Made by a program: the position numbers and the translations under genes
Notes under the pieces: model-generated
Databases searched by the model: none
What the model was told of the DNA's origin: nothing
Seen by the model: only the letters and a program-made list of their open reading frames with translations
Part shown: in pieces, positions 122-652 of the stretch
Position numbering within the stretch: position 1 is the stretch's first letter
How the letters are laid out: each line of letters begins with the position of its first letter
NCBI RefSeq assembly: GCF_003334255.1
Contig: NZ_QOWU01000073.1
Origin: Escherichia coli
GTDB lineage: Bacteria; Pseudomonadota; Gammaproteobacteria; Enterobacterales; Enterobacteriaceae
DNA length: 18,664 nucleotides
Strand: one strand, 5' to 3'

Positions 122-652
122 ATGAATAAACAATACAAACTGGTTGTTAAAGGGATAAATAATTACCCGGATAAGATTACTGTTACTGTGGCACTGGAAA
201 TTGGTGGGTATCCGTCACTGTTGTTGCCATATGTGGCGATTAGTCTTGACCGTACTGAAGGTGCCACGCTGGAGTTTTACGAAGCTGAGGCGAAAAAACA
301 GGCGAAGCAGTTTTTCATGGATATTGCTGCCGCTTTATGTGAAGGGGATGAGCAGTCGCCGGAAAAGCGCCCCATAATTTTAGAGGCGCAGGATGTGTTG
401 ATAACCTACAGAGGAAAACTACCGGGAATAATTACGGGTTCTCTGAAGACGCCACCGACGGCATTGCGGTCAGAAAACGATGATATTGAATCACGCATTG
501 AAAAACTGGAGTGCTATATCGCTGAATTGAAAAAAAGCACCCCAACAAAAAATGAGGTGCTTGCAGCAGATGAAATGAAAGAAACTATTCTTGATCGCGC
601 GGCGCATCTAAGCTGCGCTTCACTGTTGAAAGAGCATCTTCAGCAGCCTTGA
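122..652 (+). CDS. Hypothetical protein, 176 aa, no recognised motif; inserted between holin and endolysin
   Basis: ATG at 122 lies 4 nt after the holin stop, with purine-rich GGGGAGAG a few nt upstream. No signal peptide or TM segment. AT-richer than the structural genes. Confidence 0.5.
   Translation: MNKQYKLVVKGINNYPDKITVTVALEIGGYPSLLLPYVAISLDRTEGATLEFYEAEAKKQAKQFFMDIAAALCEGDEQSPEKRPIILEAQDVLITYRGKLPGIITGSLKTPPTALRSENDDIESRIEKLECYIAELKKSTPTKNEVLAADEMKETILDRAAHLSCASLLKEHLQQP

Follow-up and report, generated by a model that had tools for sequence, protein, structure and literature searches.

A backward moron-type cassette and its convergent ydfR-family neighbour in a lambdoid late operon of Escherichia coli

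Introduction

Morons have been described as extra DNA carrying its own promoter and terminator (Juhala et al. 2000; Cumby et al. 2012, PMC3594210), with a composition unlike that of neighbouring genes and expression from the repressed prophage (PMC3594210). In the tail operons of phages HK022 and ES18, the gene pairs gp22/gp23 ('srb') and gp24/gp25, respectively, are annotated as morons (GenBank NC_002166, NC_006949). In phage phi80, TaiEcA is a lysogen-expressed defence gene that runs against the Q operon, and atiEcA, a late gene next to it, neutralises its product (He et al. 2024, PMC11364771); binding was shown for one cognate pair, and TaiEcA expression falls when Q is on (PMC11364771). 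The antisense RNA STnc6030 of the Salmonella prophage BTP1 mediates superinfection exclusion (Owen et al. 2020, PMC7067206). Here we describe a locus in 18,664 nucleotides of Escherichia coli DNA (contig NZ_QOWU01000073.1 of RefSeq assembly GCF_003334255.1; this whole stretch is hereafter the window), in which a ydfR-family gene on the plus strand (ORF1) and a small gene on the minus strand (ORF2) converge and overlap at their 3′ ends (Table 1). A first-pass annotation, made from the sequence alone, had noted this overlap and proposed either reciprocal interference between mutually antisense mRNAs or that only one of the two ORFs is real.

On balance, we consider it probable that the overlap is the junction of two real genes belonging to opposite transcription programmes, with ORF2 lying in a backward moron cassette and the tail of ORF1 serving as a counter-module. 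Compared loci are designated by L-numbers (L001 etc.), HK022 being L168 and ES18 L169.

Table 1. Coordinates of the holin–endolysin region within the window
Feature	Coordinates	Strand	Remarks
3′ part of holin gene (S)	22..117	+	gene begins upstream of the window; identical genes are class II holins in E. coli genomes and Stx phages
ORF1, YdfR family, 176 aa	122..652	+	stop TGA 650-652
ORF1, DUF1327 part	122..457	+	aa 1-112, followed by a low-confidence linker
ORF1, cassette-linked tail	~479..652	+	aa ~120-176
Intrinsic terminator of the ORF2 transcript	528..562	-	from terminator scan; 10-bp stem, 8-nt loop, T run; within ORF1 codons ~136-148
Reading-frame overlap	585..652	both	68 bp, both stop codons included
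ORF2, 91 aa	585..860	-	stop TAG, complement of 585-587
Structured 5′ leader of ORF2	861..936	-	5′ CAGCC, covarying hairpin 1, invariant GGAUGGCUG within hairpin 2
Putative sigma70 promoter of ORF2	942..969	-	-35 TTATCG (969..964), 16-nt spacer, -10 TATGTT (947..942)
Endolysin gene R	986..1519	+	phrog_7 endolysin, E = 3e-62; lysozyme in relatives' annotation

Coding status of the two overlapping frames

The convergent overlap was confirmed, with both frames and both stop codons lying where the first-pass annotation had placed them. Its suggestion that only one ORF is real did not hold, as comparative evidence supports coding in both, namely codon periodicity in ORF2 and synonymous variation of the partner motif in ORF1; the check it had proposed, of conservation and synonymous-site constraint in each frame, found both ORFs conserved as coding in relatives.

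ORF2 is preceded by the Shine–Dalgarno (SD) sequence AAGGA, 6 nt 5′ of its ATG. Its only family match is phrog_18136 (unknown function, E = 4e-52), and the NCBI annotation pipeline (PGAP) and RefSeq label it hypothetical protein WP_021565043.1 in a 98.5%-identical E. coli prophage. Homologues with 62–71% amino acid identity occur in phage CharmingMan, IMG/VR contigs, a Citrobacter prophage and a metagenome contig, none of them adjoining a DUF1327 gene. In the ORF2-only segment aligned across four lineages, variable sites number 47/63 at third, 15/63 at second and 27/64 at first codon positions, and helix 3, which lies inside the overlap, is retained down to 29% identity; these alignments show clear purifying selection on the ORF2 protein. 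The family is very small, numbering nine representatives among 1.84 billion proteins, and a profile search of the genome contigs returned nothing. Searches of Pfam, NCBIfam and PADLOC gave no significant match to ORF2, and no match was found among PDB sequences. AlphaFold2 (AF2) models the protein as a three-helix bundle with a mean predicted local distance difference test score (pLDDT) of 81.6, the last six residues (86–91, pLDDT 37) being disordered; Foldseek searches of the PDB and BFVD with this model found no match (best E = 0.9), and the predicted fold is a generic three-helix bundle.

Conservation at the protein level bears directly on a further alternative, which we regard as extremely improbable: a type I toxin–antitoxin-like module in which one mRNA is the antisense antidote to a toxic small protein encoded on the other strand. 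The prophage type I loci txpA/RatA and bsrG/SR4 likewise produce RNAs that overlap at their 3′ ends, and the likeness extends to the prophage setting, the convergent RNAs and a structured leader that could sequester the SD. However, ORF2 is under protein-level selection and so is not a non-coding antitoxin, and both strands are conserved as protein. Neither product has, by eye, a transmembrane-type hydrophobic stretch, ORF2 being a predicted helical bundle and the ORF1 tail charged and helical; moreover, loci L018–L022 keep an intact ORF1 beside a truncated ORF2, which would be unexpected if ORF1 were a toxin checked by ORF2 RNA. We rejected membership of this class since it has both a non-coding antitoxin and a hydrophobic toxin, and the pair has neither.

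The first 112 residues of ORF1 match DUF1327 significantly in Pfam (PF07041, E = 8e-41), and the protein also matches phrog_2091. AF2 predicts a beta sheet and helix over residues 1–73, disorder over 73–119 and helices at 122–136 and 143–173, with an overall pLDDT of 58 and values below 50 for residues 165–176. The tail carries a coiled-coil motif (IESRIEKLE) and an LxWAA-type motif (ILDRAAHL). Next to every ORF2 homologue the equivalent frame is open and stops at the same aligned position, and tail homologues also stand free as ORFs of 51–63 aa, and of 51–59 aa beside ORF2 homologues without a DUF1327 domain, with their own ATG and a strong SD (AGGAGG, AAGGAG or GGGAGG in independent lineages); gene callers predicted such free-standing proteins in Enterobacter, Salmonella and Citrobacter. 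In the partner frame, an N-terminal LEQRVxxLE-type motif (MTLEQRVExLE), kept even in very distant pairs, and a C-terminal [ILV]L[DSN]WAA motif remain in one frame across unrelated middle segments. The Leu codon of the latter may be CTT, CTG, CTA or CTC and its Ala codons vary synonymously, and the synonymous changes in WAA are non-synonymous in the ORF2 frame. At L040, where ORF2 stops earlier, WAA lies outside the ORF2 reading frame yet is conserved. Every intact copy of the window type keeps all 176 codons of this frame open, and indels in the partner frame are multiples of three.

This pattern also counts against the distinctly unlikely alternative that only ORF2 is functional and that ORF1 is a decayed ydfR gene whose last ~60 codons are meaningless read-through into the cassette. 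Such decay could be read from PGAP, which marks ydfR as a pseudogene with a 'missing C-terminus' in three genomes, cut at codon 114 in the 98.5%-identical prophage; from a partner-only segment that, when four lineages were first compared, lacked codon periodicity; and from partner bodies that reassort with cargos and the frameshifted copies L012 and L035. The uninterrupted 176-codon frame, the free-standing ORFs with their start signals, the synonymously varying WAA motif kept where ORF2 is non-coding, the distant retention of LEQRVxxLE and the triplet indels all argue the other way. The four-lineage partner-only alignment mixed differing N-termini and took in the terminator hairpin, and the motif-level evidence is more informative than the periodicity test. 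As to the pseudogene calls (L004 1523–1864, L005 and L006, all E. coli RefSeq), they were made despite an intact 176-aa or 329-aa frame, and look like an artefact of variable C-terminal modules.

The DUF1327 part invites another reading, very unlikely in our view, in which the two genes are linked at the level of RNA decay. YdfR of E. coli K-12 binds RNase E residues 1–598 through its first 72 residues (two-hybrid and co-purification) and co-purifies with RNA (PMC13232886), and DUF1327-type genes are frequent cassette partners (ES18 gp24, L076, L121, L153, L158). Yet many cassettes, including those of the ORF2 homologues, have partners without DUF1327, and YdfR overexpression had little effect on the transcriptome (PMC13232886).

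Two further observations concern partner N-termini. DUF1327-like N-domains in the partners of L036 and L040, first judged by eye, were unsupported by Pfam or BLASTP and were dropped. In a Salmonella prophage (L045/L046, 3001–3310), 63-aa variants of the small partner keep the N-terminal MTLEQRVEILER... and differ at the C-terminus; they face a weak leader match (17 bits, E = 0.005) at the site upstream of holin, suggestive of another, or a degenerate, cargo in that position.

Variation of the overlap

The overlap encodes residues 70–91 of ORF2 (helix 3 and the disordered tail) and residues 155–176 of ORF1 (the ILDRAAHL motif and a low-confidence tail). The 68-bp overlap recurs, both stops falling on the same aligned positions, where ORF2 homologues share only 56–71% amino acid identity, and in four unrelated contexts: between holin and endolysin (the window and L004–L017), after a glycosyltransferase gene (L007, L023–27), upstream of holin (L034) and after a tape-measure gene (L044). 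The overlap is therefore more than chance. The same tail and stop beside ORF2 homologues in unrelated contexts led us to abandon the idea of a recent recombination at 649/650 that produced an accidental read-through.

Its length nevertheless varies within the family, from 20 bp (L040–43) through 47 bp (L036), 68 bp (window type, L007, L023–27, L034, L035 and L044) and 71 bp (L047) to 86 bp (L037–39), and 68 bp is thus not a conserved functional unit. From these comparisons the conserved feature is tight tail-to-tail packing rather than overlap length. The conserved cores abut, with ORF2 helix 3 ending near residue 85 and the partner motif near ORF1 residue 163; the positions of the stop codons shift, so that what overlaps is a pair of short, unconserved extensions. 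Each extension reads across the conserved end of the other gene, and the reading-frame overlap is a by-product. Both extensions are absent in distant relatives and look dispensable.

Variability at ORF2 synonymous sites is lower in the overlap (9/21) than in the remainder of the gene (47/63). Together with the tight tail-to-tail arrangement of every family member, this could be taken to favour the view that the 68-bp overlap is a selected device for reciprocal mRNA interference, through RNase III-type cleavage of the duplex or collision. We judge this unlikely, because the reduced variation is explained by the second reading frame, overlap length is unconserved, and the extent of RNA overlap would be set by the terminator and late read-through and not by the stop codons.

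The ORF2 unit and the wider leader family

ORF2 has its own leader and terminator. A hairpin with a T-rich tail lies 9–44 nt past the ORF2 stop in 13/13 lineages, including those of unrelated sequence (L044, L047), with compensatory changes from A-U to G-C and from C-G to U-A. Upstream, ~90 nt are conserved in all family members; every lineage has a TAnnnT hexamer whose distance to the conserved CAGCC downstream is exactly 7 nt, and transcription is predicted to start near 935. In the window, the T run of the terminator falls on an A7 (+)/T7 (-) run at 528–534, inside ORF1 Lys-Lys codons. One nucleotide is deleted from this run in L012 and from the neighbouring GGGG of the terminator stem in L035; either deletion disrupts the partner frame, and they could be sequencing errors or mark a slippage-prone site.

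A covariance model of the leader (R1) matches 854..936 (-) at 53.4 bits (E = 6.5e-15), the single copy in the window; this leader is a training row of the model, and the independent positive is the leader before gp06 of Stx2-86 (35.5 bits). The model also finds the leader before HK022 gp23 (93 bits) and ES18 gp25 (80 bits). Across 64 leaders, pairing in hairpin 1 reaches 96.7%, and 5/8 of its pairs show compensatory changes, a covariation reached by 0/500 shuffles. Rfam holds no family for leader or terminator, and an isrK match of 15.6 bits, far under threshold, was ignored. The leader can fold in two ways: either the invariant 5′ CAGCC pairs with the invariant GGCUG, in which case the CCUC arm pairs with the SD, or hairpin 2 forms around GGCUG. 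These alternatives suggest a translational switch acting by SD sequestration. The leader also contains an invariant GGATGGCTG (871–891, -) that includes an ATG, giving in the window a 6-codon upstream ORF, MAASQR*; in L023 and L034 a start at this ATG would extend the cargo, in whose frame it lies, by 10 residues. The ATG lacks proper SD spacing.

The unit is mobile. The position between holin and endolysin is mosaic among relatives: in phage H-19B, window position 457 is joined straight to 918 and the DUF1327 part alone is present, whereas PhiR5_1 and E. coli strain 2015C-3121 share positions 1..649 and continue into longer YdfR proteins, Stx2-86 has a 268-aa YdfR protein with a different reverse gene, and further relatives carry different inserts between the same flanks. 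The first-pass annotation spoke of two inserted ORFs; this wording needs correction, for relative to H-19B the extra DNA is 458..917 only, and the DUF1327 part of ORF1 is a regular resident of the holin–endolysin position, outside the insertion. GC content is 0.40–0.42 over 500–1000 against 0.45–0.56 in the flanks, and GC skew is inverted over the unit. Extra DNA at one position, a terminator of its own and differing base composition are all features of a moron, and by its sequence organisation ORF2 reads as the cargo of a mobile moron cassette, in which a putative promoter and a structured leader precede the small ORF and an intrinsic terminator follows it.

Beyond the ORF2 homologues, the 18-nt core of the leader, GGGATGGCTGATTACCTC, has at least 120 exact matches in IMG/VR viral contigs. 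The leader itself (~75–80 nt; consensus CAGCCCGUCAGUGGUGGGACACUGGCGC...GAGGGAUGGCUGAUUACCUC...AAGGA) recurs at L048–L167, in HK022 and ES18, and at L003 (2256–2331). In 93 analysable cases the core precedes a small ORF, mostly of 63–99 aa and very diverse in sequence, so that the small genes that it fronts, unrelated to one another, number in the dozens. Ten cargo proteins were compared with PHROGs, and every one fell into a family of unknown function. A convergent ORF meets 87/93 cargos, 39 of these ORFs starting with an MTLEQRVE-like motif and others looking DUF1327-like. Long flanking ORFs lie on the opposite strand by more than 2:1 in 80/84 loci, and on this pattern of strands the cassette appears always antisense to the phage late operon. 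The ORF2 unit shares the features of this leader–cargo family, a structured leader just 5′ of the SD and tail-to-tail antisense geometry.

A broader but tentative reading, which we hold to be rather doubtful, is that the ORF2 unit is one of hundreds of interchangeable leader–cargo–terminator cassettes set backwards into phage late operons, with a leader that is a new riboregulator, hypervariable small cargos that are anti-phage or host-modulating, and an antidote in the partner tail. CAGCC–GGCUG pairing in the leader would then free the CCUC anti-SD, and the cargos would be expressed in lysogeny. If this were true, the cassettes would represent a compact, previously unrecognised defence and counter-defence platform in temperate enterobacterial phages.

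Expression model and its weighing

In the model that we favour, in which the overlap joins two genes of opposite programmes, ORF2 would be transcribed leftward in the lysogen from its own putative promoter (start ~935) and terminate inside ORF1. ORF1 would be translated only from the Q-dependent late transcript that reads on, antisense through the cassette, to the endolysin gene. The idea of mutually antisense mRNAs holds in principle, but the geometry attached to it, a 3′ overlap of 68 nt, was wrong in three ways. First, the ORF2 terminator (562..528) is placed within ORF1, and the ORF2 mRNA would therefore run across 125 nt or more of the ORF1 3′ end rather than 68 nt, in the lysogen covering the last ~125 nt of any stray ORF1 message. 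Second, a polycistronic late transcript must cross the whole ORF2 unit to reach the endolysin gene, so that, as gene order suggests, ORF1 would be read from an RNA antisense to the entire ORF2 mRNA and its promoter; such read-through would occlude that promoter and yield RNA complementary to all of the ORF2 mRNA. Third, the reading-frame overlap itself ranges from 20 to 86 bp in the family. In phi80, experiments have shown that a gene embedded in antisense is expressed less when late (Q-dependent) transcription is on (PMC11364771), which makes one-directional interference plausible; in the model, late transcription would shut ORF2 down in the lytic phase. The last ~55 residues of ORF1, with their LEQRVxxLE-like coiled coil and LxWAA motif, would travel with the cassette; by analogy with Ati acting on Tai in phi80, this tail is probably a late-expressed counter-module that binds or counteracts the ORF2 protein.

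Several observations pull the other way. The ORF2 promoter is weak by consensus and was not called in a strict consensus scan, which is why we term it putative. ORF2 resembles neither TaiEcA nor any PADLOC model, and no solved or predicted fold matched it. The substitutions seen within the overlap among E. coli variants favour neither frame, five being synonymous only in ORF1 and six only in ORF2. The partner-only segment shows no codon periodicity in the four-lineage alignment (15/29, 17/29, 18/30), the window-type tail lacks the Trp of the LxWAA motif (ILDRAAHL; ILELAARL in L013), and 1-nt indels occur in or near the A7/T7 run in L012 and L035. In the wider family, cargo type and partner body are only moderately associated (adjusted Rand index, ARI, 0.41). 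This value gives no more than partial support to a strict match between cargo and partner body, which we had considered, and outside the cassette-encoded tail the partners are therefore not strictly cognate. The cassette is, moreover, often decayed in E. coli: a deletion in L018–22 takes out about the first 26–29 codons of ORF2, and remnants are fused into longer ydfR genes (L001, L005, L028–33).

Two forms of this decay can be described more closely. The recurrent ~100-bp deletion (L018–L022; protein P0022; matches H78–H80) also removes the SD and ATG of ORF2, leaves ORF1 100% intact, and seems to be bounded by a pair of AAAGATAA repeats, the first within the leader and the second at ORF2 codons 28–31. 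The longer YdfR proteins of L005 (1522–2511, 329 aa) and L001 (1621–2256, 211 aa) hold an in-frame antisense remnant of the ORF2 3′ end (ORF2 residues 56–91, on the other strand), as if decayed cassette pieces had been absorbed into the late-strand protein.

Gene order and neighbouring features

The window begins inside a late operon of lambdoid type, all on the plus strand. Its genes run from the holin C-terminus through ORF1, endolysin, Rz/Rz1 (2078..2656), HNH and terminase to a protease–major-head fusion, portal, major tail protein and tape measure, and ORF2 is the sole minus-strand gene assigned within it.

Only 17 nt separate the -35 element of the putative ORF2 promoter from the endolysin start codon. 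The promoter thus lies 17–44 nt upstream of that codon on the opposite strand, and RNA polymerase bound there would cover the endolysin translation-initiation region. Downstream of Rz/Rz1, a second ORF (3207–3548, +) matches the 'Rz-like spanin' family phrog_1267 (E = 6e-43). The portal is split over two consecutive plus-strand ORFs, 9013–10377 and 10374–11435, with a 4-nt overlap; the first corresponds to the N-terminal and the second to the C-terminal half of the 859-aa phrog_2271 profile, phrog_1289 matches the second alone, and the split could reflect a frameshift or pseudogene, or else a true two-gene arrangement.

Comparison with described systems

For annotation, the locus is instructive in that the NCBI pipeline marks ydfR as a pseudogene and gives no account of the pair, whereas the comparative evidence says that both genes are intact. 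The pair belongs to a widespread, recombining set of backward small genes in HK022-, ES18-, lambda- and Stx-like late operons, and small hypervariable prophage genes with their own promoter have been a repeated source of superinfection-exclusion and defence functions (HK97 gp15, Tai, STnc6030). A single covariance model of the shared leader is a simple handle for harvesting such genes, and this leader, with the breadth of the cassette family, is the more interesting by-product of the analysis.

Known antisense units of phages resemble the locus in part. Lambda OOP RNA, an example also cited in PMC7067206, is a short transcript antisense to the 3′ end of a convergent phage gene, cII; OOP is, however, a 77-nt non-coding RNA of the early region, whereas ORF1 and ORF2 are both protein-coding and the antisense unit lies in the late operon. 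STnc6030 and the STMMW_20121 locus of ST64B are independent units antisense to prophage late genes and expressed in lysogeny (PMC7067206). STnc6030 is a non-coding RNA of ~786 nt, and ORF2 a conserved protein. On the late strand, K-12 YdfR (Qin prophage, P76160) is a DUF1327 protein at the same holin–endolysin position as ORF1; at 103 aa, it lacks the linker and the cassette-linked tail.

The layout is also that of the phi80 Tai/Ati 'noncontiguous operon', in which an antisense gene interrupts a Q-dependent late operon and has an adjacent late-strand partner; in the window, gene order and strands suggest that late co-transcription would extend across the ORF2 cassette. Unlike the phi80 genes, which stand head to head with 5′ ends overlapping by 20 bp, ORF1 and ORF2 lie tail to tail. 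TaiEcA has 204 aa against 91 for ORF2, and the phi80 locus is without the leader. Homology to TaiEcA and AtiEcA, the only two proteins compared in this way, was rejected (hhalign probability 0.1% and 0.04%). TaiEcA/AtiEcA is nonetheless the closest working analogue.

The HK022 and ES18 pairs carry the same leader as the ORF2 unit and are built alike: transcription of the small antisense gene is predicted to end within a convergent small gene of the late strand, and the ES18 annotation includes equivalent putative terminators; the partner there, gp24, is a DUF1327 protein like ORF1. The HK022 pair overlaps by 81 bp, whereas that of ES18 abuts without ORF overlap. Their cargos are unrelated to ORF2 (that of HK022 is of the phrog_6806 type), and they are sited among tail genes instead of between holin and endolysin. 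Our search of the literature on DUF1327, ydfR, HK022 srb and the ES18 morons found no functional study of such pairs, and HK022 and ES18 are laboratory phages in which the pair is directly testable. Because both are annotated as morons, the kind is already catalogued; ORF1/ORF2 is a new example of it, and the pairing recurs in many phages.

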